From: Candidatus Pelagibacter sp.
GTDB taxonomy: Bacteria > Pseudomonadota > Alphaproteobacteria > Paracaedibacterales > CAIOTO01
Direction of reading: 5' to 3'
Length of the DNA stretch: 64,000 nucleotides
Assembly: GCA_013823725.1 (NCBI GenBank)
Contig: PNMQ01000006.1
Location: 1,746 to 65,745, forward strand
The notes below the pieces were generated by a model. That model saw only the letters and a program-made list of their open reading frames with translations. It was not told the origin of the DNA and made no database searches. Positions within the stretch are counted from its first letter, which is position 1, and each line of letters opens with the position of its first letter. Of this stretch, positions 13,186-43,918 are shown piece after piece. The translations under genes were made by a program, and so were the position numbers.

Positions 13186-13557
13186 TTAAAAGGGTGCACT
13201 TAGTTTTTGCTTGCCTAAAACGTGGATATGAAAATGAGGAACTTCCTGTCCACCATAATATCCTGAATTAGCAATTAATCTAAAACCATTTTCATACAAT
13301 TCTTTATTTTCAACGATTTTAACAAAGGTTTTTTGAAAATCAATAATTTCAACGTCTGTTGCATTTTTATAAAAATCGTAACTATCTATGTAGCTACCTT
13401 TGGGAATTAGTAAAACGTGGACTTTTGCTTTAGGTGAAATATCTTGAAATACTACACTATGTTCGGTTTCTAGAATATAGTCACATGGAATTTCTTTTCT
13501 TAAAATTTTAGCAAAAATATTTTCTTTGTCATAGATAGCTGGACTAAGCTGCGTCAT
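13186..13557 (-). CDS. HIT family (histidine triad) protein
   Basis: 123 aa with the histidine triad VPHFHIHVLG. Confidence 0.88.
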   Translation of the reverse strand: MTQLSPAIYDKENIFAKILRKEIPCDYILETEHSVVFQDISPKAKVHVLLIPKGSYIDSYDFYKNATDVEIIDFQKTFVKIVENKELYENGFRLIANSGYYGGQEVPHFHIHVLGKQKLSAPF

Positions 13558-14926
13558 TTTTAAGATCCCTTATGATGTGTTCGCACATTTTCTTTGCATC
13601 CCCTAATAGCATAAATGTTTTATCATCATAAAATAAGGGGTTTTCTACACCCGCGTATCCCGAAGCCATACTGCGTTTGCTAAATAAAACGGTCCGTGCT
13701 TTACCAACTTGTAGTACAGGCATACCAAACAAAGGTGATGTTTTATCCGTTTCAGCAGCAGGGTTGGTTACATCATTTGCGCCTATTACAAAAGCAACAT
13801 CTACGGAATGAAAATCACTGTTAATTTCTTCCATTTCAAAAACATCCGTATAAGGAATGCTTGCTTCTGCTAGTAAGACATTCATGTGTCCAGGCATTCT
13901 GCCTGCTACAGGGTGTATTGCAAAACGAACATTAACACCTTTTTCTTTTAATAACACCACCATTTCATTGACAACATGCTGTGCCTGAGCAACAGCCATT
14001 CCATATCCTGGAACTATAACCACATTTTGTGCTTCAGATAGCATATATGCAGCATCTTGAGGAGTTGCGACTTTATGTGGCTTATCAACTATTCCTTGTG
14101 ATTGAGAAGCCACATGCTGAATGGGTTTAAATAAAACAGACATCAAAGAACGATTCATTCCCTTACACATAATATAACTTAAGATCGCGCCCGATGCTCC
14201 TACAATAGAGCCTGCTGCTATGAGGAGTTGATTACCTAAAGAAAAACCCACTCCAGCTGCAGCCCATCCTGAATAGGAATTTAACATAGATACAATAACA
14301 GGCATGTCAGCACCACCAACATTCAAAATCATAAAGCATCCCAAAAAAAGAGCAATTATGGTAGATATCAGTAAAACCAGGCAAGATCCTGATTGAATAA
14401 AAATAAAACCAAAAAAAATAACAACAAACATTATAAAGAGATTAAAAGTATTGGAAATACCTTTAATAAATAAATATTTTTCTCTTCCACTTAATTTGAT
14501 AAATGCAATAACAGATCCTGAAAAAGTTATTGCACCGATAACAATACCCATCCACAGTTCTAGTAAATGAATACAATCTAGCCCCGTAACCCCATCTTTA
14601 AAAGAAGATGTATAGATTCCCCAGGCAACAGTAACAGCAGATAATCCCACTAAACTATGAAAACCAGCAACCAGTTCTGGTAATTGTGTCATCGTTACAC
14701 GTCCTGCTACTATTCTGCCGACAACAGCACCACCAGTTATTGTTAATAATGCAAGATAAAAATATCCTTGGTTTAAATCAAAAGAGCTTCCCAATATTGC
14801 ACAAACCATGGCTAATGCTGCAAAAAATATACCGCGTGGGGCTGTTTTTACACTCTTAAAAGAATCAATAGTCAAAATGATGGATAATATAGAAATAATA
14901 TCGAGTAAACCTAAAATGGATTTCAT
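13544..14926 (-). CDS. pntB: NAD(P) transhydrogenase subunit beta
   Basis: Multi-TM N-terminal half plus a dIII NADP(H)-binding domain (VIVPGYGMAVAQAQ, HPVAGRMPGHMNVLLAEA, VIGANDVTNPAA). Confidence 0.95.
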   Translation of the reverse strand: MKSILGLLDIISILSIILTIDSFKSVKTAPRGIFFAALAMVCAILGSSFDLNQGYFYLALLTITGGAVVGRIVAGRVTMTQLPELVAGFHSLVGLSAVTVAWGIYTSSFKDGVTGLDCIHLLELWMGIVIGAITFSGSVIAFIKLSGREKYLFIKGISNTFNLFIMFVVIFFGFIFIQSGSCLVLLISTIIALFLGCFMILNVGGADMPVIVSMLNSYSGWAAAGVGFSLGNQLLIAAGSIVGASGAILSYIMCKGMNRSLMSVLFKPIQHVASQSQGIVDKPHKVATPQDAAYMLSEAQNVVIVPGYGMAVAQAQHVVNEMVVLLKEKGVNVRFAIHPVAGRMPGHMNVLLAEASIPYTDVFEMEEINSDFHSVDVAFVIGANDVTNPAAETDKTSPLFGMPVLQVGKARTVLFSKRSMASGYAGVENPLFYDDKTFMLLGDAKKMCEHIIRDLKNDAA

Positions 14927-14928
14927 TT

Positions 14929-15261
14929 TTATTTTTTCCTTTTAATATTTTGCATAGAATTCAACATTTTTGCTGTAATATAATAGCCCCCAAATATATT
15001 GATAGACACTAAAAATAGCGCTATTAAACACAATAATGTCCCAGCAAAACCAGGATTAGTTGAAAGATTTTTTAAACATGCAACAATAATAATACTAGAG
15101 ATTACATTTGTCACACCTAGAAGAGGTGCATGTAGCGCACCAGAAACTCTCCATATGATGTAGTATCCTAAAACACATGCTAATACAAAAACCATTATAT
15201 TACTGAGTAAGTCATTTGTTTGTAGTGTACTATGCATTACACCTTGAACTTGCGATATCAT
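14929..15261 (-). CDS. pntA: NAD(P) transhydrogenase subunit alpha, part 2 (membrane segment)
   Basis: 110-aa hydrophobic protein lying between pntAA and pntB, the usual split arrangement in alphaproteobacteria. Confidence 0.85.
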   Translation of the reverse strand: MISQVQGVMHSTLQTNDLLSNIMVFVLACVLGYYIIWRVSGALHAPLLGVTNVISSIIIVACLKNLSTNPGFAGTLLCLIALFLVSINIFGGYYITAKMLNSMQNIKRKK

Positions 15262-15317
15262 TTTTCAAACCACTTCATTAATTCATTATTTAAATTTGTT
15301 AATTTATTTCTTAATGA

Positions 15318-16664
15318 CTATTTTTTATCATCCTGTTTTGCTTTTTTAACATTTTTTTTGACCTCAGGATTTTTCACCACTTTGGCATTTTTTTTATTAT
15401 TAGCTTCTTTTTTTCCAGTTGTTGCAGGTTTTGTCGATGTAGACTTTTTATGTTGAACAACTTTTGGTTTTAAAACTTTTATATCTTCAAAGTTTTGAAT
15501 CTTTTTTTCAGAACCATCCAATATTTCACCAGCTATACGTACTGCATTTAAAATTTCAAAATCCAAATCTGTTGCTGTTCCATCCCATCCATTTTTAAAA
15601 CTTGTTGTCAAAAAATTGGTAAAATTATTCGACAATGTAAAGCTTGCCGTTTTAGCTACATTATTCAAAATATTATAAGGTGAGGAAATTATTACGTTTT
15701 GATGTTCTACATCTTTACCCCACTGCGTTAACTCACAATTTCCACCCGATGCACCAGCAAGATCGACAACCACACTACCAACAGACATCAATTCCACCAT
15801 AGCTTTTGTTAAAATCTTAGGAGCAGGTTTTCCTGGAATCAAAGCCGTTGTAATAACAATATCCTGGGTTTTTAAAATATTTTCCAAAGCCAATTGTTGT
15901 TTTTGTCGGTATTGTGCTGTTACTTCTTTGGCGTAAACTTGTTTGTCCGCGCTCGTTCCATTTTCATCGACAGATACAAATATTCCACCCAAACTTTCTA
16001 CTTGTTCTTTAGCTTCAGGCCTTACATCAAAAGCATGGACAATAGCACCTAACCGTTTAGCTGTTGCTATGGCTTGAAGACCTGCAACCCCAGCACCAAT
16101 AACGAGTACACGCGCTGGTTTAATGGTTCCAGCTGCCGTCACCATCATAGAGAAAATACCTTTAAAAATATTTGCGGCGTGAATAACAGAACAGTATCCC
16201 ATCAAATTACTTTGAGACGATAAAACATCCATATTTTGTGCACGTGTTATACGTGGAAGAAGCTCCAAGGAATAGCATGAATGCCCTAATGACACAATTT
16301 TTTCTAAATGTTCTTTATTTCCGTAAGGATTAAGTAAACCAATAAAGGATGTCTTGTTTTTACTGGCTTTAACATCTAAGTCATCAGGTTGCCCCAAACA
16401 CAGAATAACATCTGATTTTTGAAAAACTTCAGTGCGTTTTTTAACTACTTTTGCACCTACTTCTTGGTATTGTTCATCTGAATAATCACTTGATTTACCA
16501 CACTGAGATTCTACCACAACAGAAAATCCGACTTTTATAAGATTTTTCACATGTTGGGGAACTAAAGGCACTCTGAATTCATTCTGATTTTTTGAAACTA
16601 CAACACCAATAATCAAAGACAAAACATAACTTCCTGAATACTTTATACAACCTAATTTAATCAT
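15318..16664 (-). CDS. pntA: NAD(P) transhydrogenase subunit alpha, part 1 (dI, NAD(H)-binding), with a lysine-rich C-terminal tail
   Basis: Alanine-dehydrogenase/PNT fold with VLVIGAGVAGLQAIATAKRLGA. The last 55-60 aa are a lysine-rich low-complexity tail. The true start may be the internal TTG near 16616. Confidence 0.92.
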   Translation of the reverse strand: MIKLGCIKYSGSYVLSLIIGVVVSKNQNEFRVPLVPQHVKNLIKVGFSVVVESQCGKSSDYSDEQYQEVGAKVVKKRTEVFQKSDVILCLGQPDDLDVKASKNKTSFIGLLNPYGNKEHLEKIVSLGHSCYSLELLPRITRAQNMDVLSSQSNLMGYCSVIHAANIFKGIFSMMVTAAGTIKPARVLVIGAGVAGLQAIATAKRLGAIVHAFDVRPEAKEQVESLGGIFVSVDENGTSADKQVYAKEVTAQYRQKQQLALENILKTQDIVITTALIPGKPAPKILTKAMVELMSVGSVVVDLAGASGGNCELTQWGKDVEHQNVIISSPYNILNNVAKTASFTLSNNFTNFLTTSFKNGWDGTATDLDFEILNAVRIAGEILDGSEKKIQNFEDIKVLKPKVVQHKKSTSTKPATTGKKEANNKKNAKVVKNPEVKKNVKKAKQDDKK

Positions 16665-36464: not shown

Positions 36465-36573
36465 AATTTTAGAAAATCATTTAAATCACAATAATTTTAT
36501 ACTATAAATTAAGTAAATTTAAATATTTTATATTTATAAATAATATTTGTATATTATTATTTATGGATTTTCT

Positions 36574-36807
36574 ATGATTAAATTTATTCTAACACCCATT
36601 ATTGCGCTAACTTTTCAGTTATGGGCAGCTGACATTCCCATAGAATCTACTTCACATAATGAAGAAATAACAAGATCTTTACAAGATGTTTCTATAGAAG
36701 AAATACCTCAGTCACTTAGTCACTTAGTCACTCAGTCACTCAGTCACTCAGTCACTCAGTCACTCAGTCACTCAGTCACTCAGTCACTCAGTCACTCAGT
36801 CACTTGA
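36574..36807 (+). CDS. Short signal-peptide ORF that reads through the octanucleotide repeat and stops right after it (candidate OFF-phase 5' segment of a phase-variable gene)
   Basis: MIKFILTPIIALTFQLWA/ADI looks like a signal peptide. The ORF reads the repeat as (SLSHSVTQ)n and ends at a TGA at 36805-36807, the first codon after the tract. Confidence 0.5.
   Translation: MIKFILTPIIALTFQLWAADIPIESTSHNEEITRSLQDVSIEEIPQSLSHLVTQSLSHSVTQSLSHSVTQSLSHSVT
36709..36804. repeat. Tandem octanucleotide repeat: 12 units of 8 bp, made of CAGTCACT x1, TAGTCACT x2, then 9 perfect CAGTCACT (36733-36804)
   Basis: Counted directly in the sequence. The unit length is not a multiple of 3, and the perfect tract is open in all three forward frames. 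Confidence 0.95.
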
Positions 36808-36871: not shown

Positions 36872-37528
36872 ATGGATACCGTATTTGAGAGAGTCATTGG
36901 ATTGGGTTCAGATTGCGCTACAAAACGCGGCATTAATTTATTTTTTACACCAAGTCAACCATGGCTAAAAACAAAAAAAGGACATTCTGACCTTTTTGAT
37001 TGGTTAATAATAAAAGATTATCGTTTATTAGCTGATGCCTTTTTTCGTAATCTTGATGATTTTTTCGAACTTCAAGATTTCATATTTCCTGGAACCCCTA
37101 TTAATTCAAAATATAACATGGATTGGTGTCATTTAGGACATAAACTTGATAACAATGGGGATTGGAATCGCCAAGAAACTACAATGAAAACACATGATGA
37201 CTTTATAAGACTTTTTGATGATACAAAAAATAAAATTGAATATTTGAAAAAAAAATTTATTAATTCACAAGATAAAAATGCTATTTATATAATCACTGAA
37301 GATAAAAGATGGAATAAAGAAATTGACTTAAGCACACTAATTTACTTAAGAGACTCAATTACTCACATAAGAAATGGCAATAAAAATTTTTGTCTTGTGC
37401 TATCAAGCGAGAATCCTAAATTCGAAAGTTTTGAAAATATTCTTGTTATCCACTCATTATCACCATGGAATGGAAACTACGTTAACATTTTATCTAATTT
37501 TAAATTCACATCCAATATTTGGGCCTAA
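36872..37528 (+). CDS. DUF1796-like protein (putative papain-like cysteine peptidase family); 3' segment of the candidate phase-variable gene
   Basis: N-terminal VIGLGSDCATKRG ... SDLFDWLI ... FFRNLDDFFE resembles my recollection of the DUF1796 signature (sLGsnC...PFDW...F.dFl). Its reading frame stays open upstream back into the repeat tract. Confidence 0.55.
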   Translation: MDTVFERVIGLGSDCATKRGINLFFTPSQPWLKTKKGHSDLFDWLIIKDYRLLADAFFRNLDDFFELQDFIFPGTPINSKYNMDWCHLGHKLDNNGDWNRQETTMKTHDDFIRLFDDTKNKIEYLKKKFINSQDKNAIYIITEDKRWNKEIDLSTLIYLRDSITHIRNGNKNFCLVLSSENPKFESFENILVIHSLSPWNGNYVNILSNFKFTSNIWA

Positions 37529-37617: not shown

Positions 37618-40600
37618 TTATGTTCGTCTAGATCCAATATATTTCACATACGTGTAATCTAATTTATTCAAAGGTCCGTGGCTATGATCTCTCAAAATAA
37701 TAGCATCTGAACTTTGATGAATATCTTTCTTTTGTTGATAGCACATACATGCATAAATAGGTTGATCAGAACCTTCTTTATAATAAACACAACGACTACA
37801 AATCCCTTTAGACATGCATTGTACAGGGTTAAAAACACTATAATCTACCGTTAATTTATTTGAACTTCTGGATATTTTTTTTAGTTCATCCATGACAAGA
37901 GTATTCAAATCATTTGATCCATGAATTTTCCACTGAATAACATCTTTTACCTTTTCAGAAATATCTTTAAGGGTGTCCTTTAATTTATCCAAAGAACAAA
38001 GCGTATAATCTTTTCCCTCTATGGCAGAAGGAATATAATTAATTTTAAAGGTATCAAAAACAGTTTGATCATGTTCTGATTGAATATAAACAACTAAAAA
38101 AACCTTACAATTTTTTAAAATAAGCTGTTCCCTATACATCACTAGAGTACTTAATGTTTGAGGTAACGCCACCAAAACAACGTTTTGATTTTCATACAAC
38201 TCAAATAAATCTCCAGATGGCCCCGTTAATGACACTTGCTCATGAACCCGTAGATTGTTCATGGAGTATGAAGATGCACCTGCTTGATGAATCAGAAAGG
38301 TTAAGGTCCTGCCATCAACTTTTAATGGTGACAAAGCTACACCTTCTGAATAGGGTGTTTTTTCTGCTTTATTATTTATAAAATATCGATTTAATTTATA
38401 AATAAATCCTGGTCTGTAAGCCTGTGCTTGAAGAGATGCATGAATTGTGACCTCTAACCAGTGATCAAACCTCACAATTTTTTGAACATAAATTTCAGTC
38501 AAATTTTTCCACTGAGTTAAAAAGTTGCCATTTTCTAACAAGTTAGAATCTTGAAAAGCATTTTGTTTTAAAGAATCAAGGATATAGGGATAACCCTTTT
38601 TAGCACTAGCCATAGCCTTTACAACGCTACCATGATAACGGGAATTCAAATCCCCAAAACAACTTATCTTATTTTGGAACTTTGCATTTTTAACGTTTAA
38701 GAGAGGATTATCTAAATCACCATCGTCCATTGTTTTTAAATAACTATTTTCAATGATCAAACAATCTTCATCATGAGCAATGGAAACATTAGGTTTAAGA
38801 CCTGTTCCTAACAACAATGTCTTACATGCCAAGGTTCTTTCTGTCGTTTGAATCTGTGCAATACATCCCTTTTCGTCCGAATGGATATCTGCTAGTTCTT
38901 CATCATAGATAACTTTAATCCCCTCGTTCAATGCTGCCTTTAACTCCTCCACGTTAATCCTATACGCTGGAGATTGTATAATGTCTTTGCGATATAATAA
39001 CGTCACACCTCCCCATTGATCTATCAAAGAATGAATCTTTTCAAGGTTTTGCTGAACGTCTACTTTATCAATTTCACAAGCGTGTGCAAGATAGGTATCT
39101 GCTAATTCATTTTCTTGGGCTGTCCAATCTTGTCTTATTTCATGATCAGACAAACTTATTTTCAGCGCATCATAGCGATGTTTGAATTTTAAAACTTGTT
39201 GTACATAAAAAGATCGGGCTTCAACAGCGCAATCAACAGCTGTCAACCCTCCCCCCAAAACCACAATAGGAAGCTCTAATTTAAACTGAAACAATGATTG
39301 CAAATGGTAAGCCGCACCTAAATGAAGAGTCATCAAAAAATCCGTGGCAAAATGCACACCAGCAATTTTCATCCAATCTGGTTTAAGACCCTTTGAAAGA
39401 CCTGCACCTAAACATAAGGCAACATGATCAAACCCCAATGAAAATGCTTTTTCAAAACCTAATGCCCCGCCAAAACGAATACCCCCTATTAGTAAAAATG
39501 AAGAGTTACGTTGTAAAATGATACGAATCAAATCAAGATAATTTTTATTCCACCGTGACGTAATACCGTATTCACAAACTCCTCCAAATCCTTGGGGAAT
39601 TCGCTGATACATGCTTTTTTGCATACTGTTCCAGGAATACATAACTTTAAAATCATCTGAAAAAATATCTATCCAGCCATTTTCAAGTGGTTCTATTTTT
39701 GCTGTATCAATAGCCACAACGGTAATGCCTTCACGCAACAAATAGTGGGCTAATGTAAATCCAGCAGGTCCAGTACCTACAACTAATACTTTGTTTCCTG
39801 TTGCGGCTTTAGGCAATGGATTTTCAATATTTAAAGGATTCCATCGTGTTAAAAGACTATATATTTCTGGTCCATAGGGTAAGTTAAGAACAGATTCCAA
39901 AATTTGCGTTTCAATTCCAGGAACATCAACTTGTGTTTGCTTTTGAAAGATACACGCTTGTTTGCAATCGACACAAATACGATGTCCCGTTCCTGCAATA
40001 AGCGGATTATCAATCATCGCTATTGCTAAAGCAGCGATAAAATGGCCTTTGCTAAACAATAAATTCATTTCTGAAATTTTTTGATCCAACGGACACCCTT
40101 CTAGTTTGGCACCCAAAGAATTTTCTTTAACATCACCAGATGAGCTCTTCAAACCAGTACGACACGAATCTTTTTTTTGGGGGTGACAATGAATGCAATA
40201 CGATGCTTGGTTAATTTCATATTCAACAGATGGAAGATCGTTTTTCAATGTGTATTCAAGCGGACTCTTTTCAAGAACTAAACTTTCAACCTGATGGTGT
40301 GTAAAAGTAAAATCCTTTAAAAGGTCTAAAGAATTGACTGGTTCACTCTTCCAAAAAAGTGTCGTTTGATCGTTTTTTTTTTCAAATAGTTGAACTTGAT
40401 ACGCACAAAATAATTCGGCTTGTTCAATTTTTTCAGCAAATTCTTCTACATTTTCTAGCCAGTCAAAAATCTGTTTTGCACATTCATATTCGTCTAATGA
40501 ATCAAAAGGATTTAATGGTGAATTTTTAATGATTGTTTGTTTGTACTTTGTTAGAACTCTTTTTTGAATAAAGTTTTTTCTAACCCATGAAATACAACTA

Positions 40601-40827
40601 ATCTTACTGATAGTTTTTCTGTGAGTTAACACTTCCTTTTCATTAAGAAATAAAAGCGCCATAAAATCTTCAAGATAAACAGCCTGTTCTAAGATTTTTT
40701 TTTGAAAAATATCTGATGACGTATTTATTGATGAAGAATTACAAAATAATAGAAAAATCGAATGTAATTTTTCTAATTTAGATTGGTCGTATAAATCACG
40801 AATACTAAAATCGAAACGAAGGTTCAC
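37618..40827 (-). CDS. Large fused iron-sulfur flavoprotein: unknown N-terminal domain, then a GltD/NfnB-like NAD(P)H oxidoreductase, then a PyrK/NfnA-like FAD/2Fe-2S reductase domain
   Basis: GltD-like Cys clusters (CIHCHPQKKDSC, EGCPLDQKISEMN, GHRICVDCKQACIF) and two Rossmann motifs (KVLVVGTGPAGFTLA, VVLGGGLTAVDCAVEA). The C-terminal FNR-like module has GPSG and the PyrK-type cluster CMSKGICSRCV...YAC. Confidence 0.8.
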   Translation of the reverse strand: MNLRFDFSIRDLYDQSKLEKLHSIFLLFCNSSSINTSSDIFQKKILEQAVYLEDFMALLFLNEKEVLTHRKTISKISCISWVRKNFIQKRVLTKYKQTIIKNSPLNPFDSLDEYECAKQIFDWLENVEEFAEKIEQAELFCAYQVQLFEKKNDQTTLFWKSEPVNSLDLLKDFTFTHHQVESLVLEKSPLEYTLKNDLPSVEYEINQASYCIHCHPQKKDSCRTGLKSSSGDVKENSLGAKLEGCPLDQKISEMNLLFSKGHFIAALAIAMIDNPLIAGTGHRICVDCKQACIFQKQTQVDVPGIETQILESVLNLPYGPEIYSLLTRWNPLNIENPLPKAATGNKVLVVGTGPAGFTLAHYLLREGITVVAIDTAKIEPLENGWIDIFSDDFKVMYSWNSMQKSMYQRIPQGFGGVCEYGITSRWNKNYLDLIRIILQRNSSFLLIGGIRFGGALGFEKAFSLGFDHVALCLGAGLSKGLKPDWMKIAGVHFATDFLMTLHLGAAYHLQSLFQFKLELPIVVLGGGLTAVDCAVEARSFYVQQVLKFKHRYDALKISLSDHEIRQDWTAQENELADTYLAHACEIDKVDVQQNLEKIHSLIDQWGGVTLLYRKDIIQSPAYRINVEELKAALNEGIKVIYDEELADIHSDEKGCIAQIQTTERTLACKTLLLGTGLKPNVSIAHDEDCLIIENSYLKTMDDGDLDNPLLNVKNAKFQNKISCFGDLNSRYHGSVVKAMASAKKGYPYILDSLKQNAFQDSNLLENGNFLTQWKNLTEIYVQKIVRFDHWLEVTIHASLQAQAYRPGFIYKLNRYFINNKAEKTPYSEGVALSPLKVDGRTLTFLIHQAGASSYSMNNLRVHEQVSLTGPSGDLFELYENQNVVLVALPQTLSTLVMYREQLILKNCKVFLVVYIQSEHDQTVFDTFKINYIPSAIEGKDYTLCSLDKLKDTLKDISEKVKDVIQWKIHGSNDLNTLVMDELKKISRSSNKLTVDYSVFNPVQCMSKGICSRCVYYKEGSDQPIYACMCYQQKKDIHQSSDAIILRDHSHGPLNKLDYTYVKYIGSRRT

Positions 40828-43498: not shown

Positions 43499-43918
43499 TT
43501 AATTACCGAGTTGATCCAAAGCTTTTTGGAATCTTCCAGCATGAGATTTTTCAGCCTTAGCTAATGTTTCAAACCATTCAGCAATTTCTTCAAAACCTTC
43601 TTCACGAGCTGCTTTAGCCATACCTGGGTACATGTCTGTATATTCGTGGGTTTCACCTTCTATTGCAGCTTTTAAATTATCTTGCGTTGAACCGATAGGA
43701 AGACCAGTCGCCGGATCACCAACTTCTTCTAAGAACTCTAAGTGTCCATGAGCATGACCGGTTTCACCTTCTGCAGTAGAACGAAACACAGCTGCTACAT
43801 CGTTATATCCTTCAATATCTGCCTTTTGTGCGAAATAGAGATATCTTCTGTTCGCTTGTGATTCACCTGAAAACGCATCTTTTAAATTTTGTTCCGTTTT
43901 AGATCCTTTAAGATTCAT
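43499..43918 (-). CDS. Rubrerythrin-family ferritin-like diiron protein with no rubredoxin domain
   Basis: [23 protein letters not shown] and two ExxH diiron motifs ([15 protein letters not shown]). At 139 aa it ends before any CxxC rubredoxin module. Confidence 0.88.

Follow-up and report, generated by a model that had tools for sequence, protein, structure and literature searches.

The gene at 37618..40827 of the stretch analysed here raises the question of what an Nfn-like flavoprotein, built as one chain, could do in a small-genome aerobe. The stretch (the window) comprises 64,000 nucleotides of contig PNMQ01000006.1 from an assembly labelled Candidatus Pelagibacter sp. (GCA_013823725.1) and has a G+C content of ~34%; the source genome (G000) amounts to 1.26 Mb in 9 contigs, with a completeness of 98.49%. 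We consider the chances about even that the encoded protein, a divergent single-chain Nfn-like member of the RP005/PRK06567 family, is a donor of single electrons to ferredoxin-type clients that is driven by reduced nicotinamide adenine dinucleotide phosphate (NADPH) and has no nicotinamide adenine dinucleotide (NAD) function.

In this reading, NADPH would reduce the flavin adenine dinucleotide (FAD) of the GltD-like unit, as the conserved motifs suggest, and single electrons would leave through two [4Fe-4S] clusters to an external iron–sulfur acceptor, a route that has a precedent in Nfn and GltS and would fit the gene neighbourhoods of relatives. The acceptor would most likely be a ferredoxin, and the genome encodes both FdxA (NF045490, 139.8 bits against a cut-off of 135) and a 2Fe-2S ferredoxin (Fdx) of the iron–sulfur cluster (ISC) type, or otherwise a ferredoxin-dependent client enzyme. 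The C-terminal unit, which has no NAD(H) loop and retains, under purifying selection, the [2Fe-2S] cysteines and the motifs of the flavin barrel, may have a structural role or offer electrons a second way out, and the protein is more probably an NADPH:acceptor reductase like the non-transhydrogenating NfnII/Xfn. As candidate clients we would name, in order of preference, FdxA, the ISC ferredoxin, the heme A synthase CtaA and rubrerythrin.

One chain with an NfnB/GltD-like and a probable NfnA/PyrK-like module

A first-pass annotation, made from the sequence alone, had reported an open reading frame (ORF) of 1069 amino acids at this position. The ORF is indeed there and complete, with a GTG start and a TAA stop at 37618-37620; we add the correction that it lies on the minus strand. 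The gene is genuine, far beyond what chance would produce. Its start codon is well placed, because the N-terminus of the protein (MNLRFDFSIRDLY...) coincides with the consensus start of the family in a 56-sequence alignment. Full-length homologues, which include proteins from Wolbachia, Ehrlichia and Finniella and many from metagenome-assembled genomes (MAGs), cover 93-100% of the query, and the ratio of non-synonymous to synonymous substitution rates (dN/dS) for the whole protein is 0.146 against an orthologue of 84% identity.

The protein is one chain in which an NfnB/GltD-like and then, judged from the family profile, an NfnA/PyrK-like module follow a helical head (Table 1), the order that had been proposed. 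AlphaFold2, supplied with 56 homologues, gave a confident full-length model (predicted local distance difference test, pLDDT, 86.2; predicted template modelling score, pTM, 0.90). Residues ~160-760 of the model superpose on the Pyrococcus furiosus NfnI large subunit, NfnI-L (5jfc_L), with a VIA Z of 23.3 and a root-mean-square deviation of 2.5 Å over 430 residues at 24% identity; the Xfn large subunit (Z 22.8), T. maritima NfnB (4ylf_B, Z 22.4), GltD (Z 19.5-21.3) and then the N-terminal half of dihydropyrimidine dehydrogenase (DPD) come next in the Foldseek and VIA-align comparisons, in which the match lists of the whole model are filled by this middle module. Its iron–sulfur region, at residues 196-340, where the first-pass annotation had read two cysteine clusters, can be laid over the Fe-S domains of both NfnI-L and NfnB, and the seven [4Fe-4S] cysteines and E253 are invariant across the 56 aligned family members. 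The module has the motifs GTGPAG, GGGLTAVD and YRK, aligns with the NADPH sites of NfnI-L and NfnB and carries family-specific insertions at ~380-415 and 537-606. Among the Pfam matches, Pyr_redox_2 covers residues 346-699 (2.5e-15) and Fer4_20 appears as a weak, sub-threshold match at residues 243-311 (8.9e-4).

For the C-terminal 300 residues, the matches come from a family profile of 56 sequences, which aligns with the NfnI small subunit, NfnI-S (5jca_S), over its whole length (8.3e-20), with T. maritima NfnA (4ylf_A, 6.9e-18), with PyrK (1e-9 to 5e-9) and with the Xfn small subunit (2.6e-8). NCBIfam models of the PyrK type match the window protein weakly (~1e-3) at residues 827-1019. The AlphaFold2 model has beta strands at 780-871 and still predicts a beta-alpha-beta subdomain at 882-998. 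In the profile alignments, the family motif GGSS (GASS in the window protein) corresponds to GKTT of Nfn, MGPTG (TGPSG) to LGPLG, and liGGGlGnA to the NAD loop IGGGVGVA. The flavin motif of the RxYS type had been described as unclear, and so it is: MEGLALT of the family (SEGVALS in the window protein) aligns with ERIPLT of Nfn, and its arginine is a glycine in the entire family. The family site C-x5-C-x2-C...C aligns with the [2Fe-2S] loop of NfnI-S, where the hidden Markov model alignment puts C1004 no more than one position away from the Asp ligand; C1004, C1010, C1013, C1027 and the glycine-rich motifs are invariant across the 56 sequences.

NfnB aligns with the window protein only from about residue 160-185, so residues 1 to ~175-195 form an extra head. 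In a separate model (pLDDT 84.7), the head consists of five helices and a small hairpin. Its alignment with 53 relatives is collinear, at 17-31% identity, and identity to the sister genome is 81%; in the ESM Atlas, the clusters closest to residues 1-198 carry RP005_N (score 0.91, 155 shared features). The precomputed Pfam lists give PF27156 for most relatives and none for the window protein or P0003-P0005. Among 48161 representative PDB chains, no match to the head reached Z>=5 (best VIA Z 4.5; the top chains are Borrelia lipoproteins and assorted helices), which is not proof of a new fold.

Table 1. Features of the window protein, motifs quoted in the first-pass annotation (all present in the translation) and nearby genes
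Feature	Residues	Position in window	Strand	Details
RP005/PRK06567-family single-chain Nfn-like iron-sulfur flavoprotein		37618..40827	-	whole protein
Family-specific helical head	1-195	40243..40827	-	Pfam PF27156 RP005_N in relatives
Two-[4Fe-4S] domain	196-340	39808..40242	-	C211, C214, C222, C245, C285, C288, C292 and E253
GltD/NfnB-type FAD and NADPH domains	341-760	38548..39807	-	GTGPAG 351-356, GGGLTAVD 525-532, YRK 612-614
NfnA/PyrK-like flavin-binding beta-barrel	775-875	38203..38505	-	SEGVALS 827-833, QAGASS 848-853, GPSG 869-872
Degenerate NAD-binding-like alpha/beta subdomain	876-990	37858..38202	-	A887-L-P-Q-T891 at GGGxG position (38155-38169)
[2Fe-2S] site and C-terminal helix	991-1069	37621..37857	-	C1004, C1010, C1013, C1027
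Motif CIHCHPQKKDSC	211-222
Motif EGCPLDQKISEMN	243-255
Motif GHRICVDCKQACIF	281-294
Motif KVLVVGTGPAGFTLA	346-360
Motif VVLGGGLTAVDCAVEA	522-537
Motif VALSPL	830-835
Motif GPSG	869-872
Motif CMSKGICSRCV...YAC	1004-1027
PntAB		13544-16664	-	PNTB, PNTB_4TM, AlaDh_PNT
86-aa ORF		36547-36807	+	ends in tandem SLSHSVTQ repeat
218-aa ORF		36872-37528	+	no Pfam family
Rubrerythrin/ferritin-like protein		43499-43918	-	139 aa, no rubredoxin domain

By homology the protein belongs to the catalogued RP005/PRK06567 family. NCBIfam NF005128 (PRK06567) matches it with E 1.7e-166 and 556 bits (residues 20-938 against positions 34-951 of the 1031-position profile); the curated equivalog cut-off of 1072 bits is missed, which fits the diverged C-terminus. 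The related model NF009415 matches at 1.1e-15. In a search that scored 8000 candidates, at least 3684 proteins matched at E<=1e-3. Within the best 120 of them, one is 84% and two are 63% identical to the window protein, and the others are 33-42% identical at near-full coverage; their labels include Wolbachia, Ehrlichia, Candidatus Finniella, Candidatus Mesenet, Rickettsiales, Alphaproteobacteria and Bryobacteraceae. At least 589 of the 600 pattern matches listed (one genome per species) encode a relative, and the 80 loci retained for comparison come from Alphaproteobacteria, Acidobacteriota, Planctomycetota, Burkholderiales, Nevskia and one zetaproteobacterial MAG. The family occurs in 39 of 41 genomes of the window's own order (34 of 35 high-quality ones) and in 100 of the 401 genomes sampled from the class (86 of 337); the class tallies include G278, and the family tally also G079, whose omission shifts each count by at most 2. 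The architecture is not rare and is catalogued as NF005128/PRK06567 and as Pfam RP005_N. We found no experimental or biochemical study of the family, and the literature mentions that we did find are at the level of annotation.

A few relatives appear in longer frames. The 1461-aa frame at L059:5980-10365 joins an RP005-like protein to AnmK, and P0036 (1300 aa) carries a 5-formyltetrahydrofolate cyclo-ligase domain in addition to the RP005-like part; both are probably read-through into unrelated neighbouring genes. The long open frames in G098 and G102 were set aside as a hint to function: they have no extra Pfam domain, and their length probably reflects over-extension in GC-rich DNA.

Loss of the NAD loop and divergence of the C-terminal unit

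At the position of the NAD loop, the window protein reads VLVALPQTLS, and A887-L-P-Q-T891 aligns with GGGVG of NfnI-S/NfnA and with GGGLG of canonical relatives. The relatives at 84% and 63% identity have ALPQT or ALSQT, and in the third genome of the genus the sequence is IATHLHS. The order contributes 28 full-length proteins; 25 of them have GGGxGN, and the 3 without the loop are exactly those of the three genomes of the genus. Judged from these alignments, the NAD(H)-binding glycine loop has been lost in this genus, and the C-terminal unit probably no longer binds NAD(H). The NADH-linked Nfn or transhydrogenase role that the first-pass annotation had implied as a possibility is therefore unlikely, since ALPQT stands where the C-terminal module would need GGGxG.

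The loop varies in the wider family as well. Among the best 120 of the at least 3684 relatives, 86 have GGG[LVIH]G, 15 have a variant glycine-rich loop (P0016, with GGGVRN, included), one has a weak loop and one is unclassifiable. Nine entries have no glycine loop: the window protein, which is present twice, P0003-5, P0010, P0043, P0062 and P0110. The remaining eight (P0065, P0070, P0071, P0077, P0089, P0097, P0113 and P0114) end right after GPTG; seven of these have 906-936 residues and P0089 has 1046, and five are labelled Wolbachia and one beetle. No remainder of the gene was found in the 719 bases left downstream of the shortened form on a Wolbachia contig. The protein at L013 was grouped with the GPTG-ending forms, and P0055, also labelled Wolbachia, is full length at 1114 residues.

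Within the window's order, one family has still shorter forms of 697-717 residues (L112, L113, L115 and L119, from G025, G031, G010 and G019). These break off inside the FAD domain, directly behind the A(V/I)GT strand, and have neither its last motif (FGD...) nor any of the NfnA-like unit; the genes downstream are unrelated and on the opposite strand. Another family of the order has forms of 941-994 residues with GGGHFN or GGGQLN.

Divergence of the window protein is concentrated towards its C-terminus. Compared with canonical relatives, identity is 57-62% in the Fe-S domain, falls to 42-45% in the FAD/NADPH domains and 29-39% across the flavin barrel, is lowest in the NAD-like subdomain (14-18%) and amounts to 23-25% in the [2Fe-2S] tail, whereas two canonical relatives from different families are mutually 67, 64, 68, 55 and 75% identical in the same five parts. 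For the same genome pairs, identity is 51-73% for AlaRS and 68-69% for GyrB. In G002, of the same genus, the AlaRS homologue is found as two adjacent frames of 258 and 666 aa (G002:C1:49202-51822); the gene may be split, or a frameshift or a fault in the assembly may lie behind the two frames.

Against the sister genome (dS ~0.6), dN/dS is 0.18 in the head, 0.07 in the Fe-S domain, 0.12 in the FAD/NADPH domains, 0.18 in the barrel, 0.25 in the NAD-like subdomain and 0.11 in the 2Fe-2S tail; purifying selection acts on every domain. In addition, the 11 cluster cysteines and the barrel motifs are invariant in a clade of four members at 63% identity. Because the C-terminal unit is still under selection and keeps these residues, it appears to have changed its job rather than died.

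Candidate electron partners and alternative readings

Clustering of 790 neighbouring ORFs from the 80 loci gave no universal partner, and the commonest neighbour family is found in 9 of them. In nine loci (L003, L006, L008, L010, L012, L017, L023, L026 and L050, labelled as MAGs of Rickettsiales or Alphaproteobacteria), the RP005-like gene is the last of a cysI-cysH-cysD-cysNC cluster on the same strand and abuts or overlaps the gene before it; the overlap with cysNC is also seen in G099 (L123). In these operons the gene occupies the place expected of a cysJ-type reductase. The accessible part of Price et al. (10.1101/072470) describes many Alphaproteobacteria that have cysI and no cysJ and proposes DUF2849 as the electron source; in that part of the text the NADPH-oxidising partner is left open. 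The ctaA gene (COX15-CtaA) is also near in 9 of the 80 loci, directly adjacent and divergent in seven (L044, L045, L052, L060, L061, L062 and L064) and close by in L026 and L028; most of these are labelled Reyranella or Rhodospirillales. Finally, 3 of the 80 loci have fdxA no more than 2.2 kb away, in L075 directly upstream.

In the window itself, the neighbours are the 218-aa ORF, an MFS transporter, HemB, XseB and rubrerythrin, with RluB, AlaRS, TatC, SerRS and subunits of PDH further along. The L001 counterpart of the 218-aa ORF seems to be split into two shorter frames (40-46% identity), and the 86-aa ORF with its tandem repeat lies beyond it. The proton-translocating PntAB that the first-pass annotation had placed in the same window is present, 21 kb from the gene (Table 1). 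Elsewhere the genome has two Lpd-like proteins and TrxB.

Several points weigh against NADPH-driven donation to ferredoxin-type clients. A 335-aa flavoprotein like thioredoxin reductase (TrxR), distinct from TrxB (G000:C3:146870-147877; L124:271-1278, minus strand; TIGR01292 at 156.9 bits against a cut-off of 343), could already serve ferredoxin; we take it to resemble the ferredoxin-NADP reductases of the YumC type. No redox neighbour in the window is conserved elsewhere, and no neighbour family exceeds 9 of the 80 loci. Across the 401 class genomes, presence of the family is independent of both NIR_SIR, found in 47 of 100 genomes with the family and 158 of 301 without it, and PF00175, found in 45 of 100 and 144 of 301, figures that are descriptive only, because related genomes are not independent; PF00175 is not specific for Fpr. 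A role confined to sulfite reductase, or a simple replacement of the ferredoxin-NADP reductase (FNR) type, is not supported. The PF01077 search for NIR_SIR, the siroheme sulfite reductase CysI, found no match in the source genome, and no PF00175 reductase was found there either. The second flavin itself is unproven, because the arginine of the flavin motif is a glycine family-wide. The C-terminal unit of the window protein is assigned via the family alignment: a direct phmmer search with the protein gave 19 matches and an hmmsearch with the profile of its four-member clade gave 30, with no NfnA or PyrK chain among either at E<=1. Our literature search found no report of the activity, cofactor content or partner of any family member.

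Of the other explanations, a dedicated reductase of one client enzyme is rather unlikely, and heme A synthase would be its best candidate. Mitochondrial Cox15 requires ferredoxin and ferredoxin reductase, CtaA is encoded in the genome, and the adjacency of ctaA in other loci, like the near-universal retention of the family in an order of reduced genomes, would suit such a client; the ctaA of the source genome, however, is on another contig (C3:2454-3404), and the related labels of most ctaA-adjacent loci may point to one inherited arrangement. That the protein is an electron-bifurcating Nfn in one chain, which would pass electrons from NADPH to ferredoxin and NAD+ or the reverse, perhaps together with PntAB, is improbable for the window copy. 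Both modules with their strong profile and structural matches, the PntAB genes and the GGGxG loop of 86 of the 120 relatives speak for it. Yet the genus has lost that loop, its NAD subdomain is 14-18% identical to canonical forms, the flavin-motif arginine is missing, the [2Fe-2S] site has four cysteines where Nfn has Asp(Cys)3 (accessible part of PMC8097209), and several lineages have dropped the entire branch. Electron supply to the nearby rubrerythrin for NADPH-dependent peroxide reduction is similarly improbable. The rubrerythrin gene is 2.7 kb away on the same strand and recurs near the gene in L001 and L002 (98.6% and 86% identical, against 84% and 37% for the flavoprotein), and NCBIfam has a model, NF009413, that by its name is an Nfn-like/ferritin-domain fusion. 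These two loci are, however, the only such cases among the 80, both are close relatives, three unrelated genes (for the MFS transporter, HemB and XseB) intervene, and the NF009413 match is weak (E 2.1e-3).

Very little speaks for a decaying gene whose C-terminal part is now idle. The NAD loop is gone and the protein evolves faster than housekeeping proteins (84% identity to the sister genome, compared with 91% for AlaRS and 96% for GyrB), but the frame is intact, dN/dS does not exceed 0.25 in any domain, the degenerate one included, and all 11 cluster cysteines are kept across the 63%-identical clade. The databases name NF005128 and NF009415 as a fusion of the glutamate synthase small subunit with 2-polyprenylphenol hydroxylase, a reading that is hardly credible, although the name has been reused for Ehrlichia ECH_0778 (accessible part of PMC4251998). 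It rests on sequence likeness only, and the C-terminal unit is, by the family profile, an electron-transfer module of the NfnA/PyrK type, not a hydroxylase. The protein is not a glutamate synthase subunit, because GltB (Glu_synthase, PF01645) has no match in the source genome, in a search whose control matched 14 of 14 genomes. The name of the family is misleading.

As a single instance the window gene is ordinary: the family is common, catalogued and uncharacterised, and the window copy is a diverged member with an informative pattern of decay rather than a new kind of system. What makes it of interest is that nearly all genomes of a reduced-genome order, about a quarter of the class sample and well-known intracellular bacteria keep the family. 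Because the NADPH/[4Fe-4S] core stays conserved and only the NAD part decays or is shortened, independently in several symbiont lineages, the core, not transhydrogenation, would be the indispensable part there. More broadly, RP005 proteins may use NADPH to supply low-potential electrons in many aerobic Alphaproteobacteria, in symbionts like Rickettsiales, in Acidobacteriota and in Planctomycetota, with canonical members bifurcating via the NfnA-like branch, a generalisation that we regard as doubtful. If it held, canonical members would bifurcate electrons from NADPH to ferredoxin and NAD+, sustained by PntAB and respiration, and would feed sulfite reductase without CysJ, heme A synthase and further clients of ferredoxin; host-restricted lineages, that of the window among them, would repeatedly have shed the NAD branch, and these natural minimal versions would reveal the essential half. 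Were the family the NADPH-to-ferredoxin route of these aerobes, it might also identify the donor of heme A synthase, and it would answer the question of what reduces the CysJ-less sulfite reductase, for which the accessible part of 10.1101/072470 proposes only the small DUF2849 protein.

Comparison with Nfn and GltD enzymes

With other RP005/PRK06567 members, the window protein shares collinear homology over its full length, the order of its domains and the invariant cysteines. Its identity to most of them is 33-38%, and it differs in having no NAD loop and in deletions in the C-terminal subdomain. The accessible part of Liang et al. 2019 (PMC6405883) describes, as 'Pattern C', uncharacterised single-gene fused Nfn homologues of Actinobacteria, Alpha- and Gammaproteobacteria, in which the part with a-FAD, NAD and [2Fe-2S] is C-terminal and which are ~200 residues longer than the other fused type. 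Pattern C, as described there, probably corresponds to NCBIfam NF009415/PRK12779. The NfnA-like part of the window protein is likewise C-terminal, but the match to NF009415 is far more distant than that to NF005128. NfnABC (PDB 9n5u/9bov) was rejected as a counterpart, as it is of the unrelated Bfu type.

The GltD structures (PDB 6s6s, 7mfm) and the N-terminal half of DPD share the Fe-S and FAD/NADPH unit with the window protein, whose phmmer search matches the GltD chain 7mfm_I at 6.5e-10. It differs from GltD in that its genome has no GltB partner, and from DPD in having no FMN (flavin mononucleotide) domain of the DPD type.

With P. furiosus NfnI, the window protein has in common the fold of the large subunit, with its FAD, NADPH site and pair of [4Fe-4S] clusters, and probably, judged from the family profile, a module like the small subunit that comprises a flavin barrel and a [2Fe-2S] site. 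Here, however, the modules form one chain in the order B then A, with the extra head of ~175-195 residues and two large insertions in the NADPH domain. The RP005 family has a four-cysteine [2Fe-2S] site, whereas Nfn uses Asp(Cys)3 ligation according to the accessible part of PMC8097209; the flavin-motif arginine is a glycine in the family, and the window lineage has no NAD loop. It is encoded by an aerobe with a small genome, which has a respiratory chain, PntAB and CtaA.

NfnII/Xfn (PDB 5vj7) sets the precedent of an Nfn-type enzyme that does without an NADH site: in the same part of PMC8097209, the small subunit of P. furiosus NfnII is described as having no usable NADH site, and the enzyme acts as a plain NADPH:ferredoxin reductase. 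Structurally, NfnII/Xfn is as close to the window protein as NfnI is, although it consists of two subunits and comes from an archaeal anaerobe. The two also differ in how the NADH site would have been lost, by an obstructing loop in NfnII and by loss of the glycine loop together with sequence decay in the window protein.

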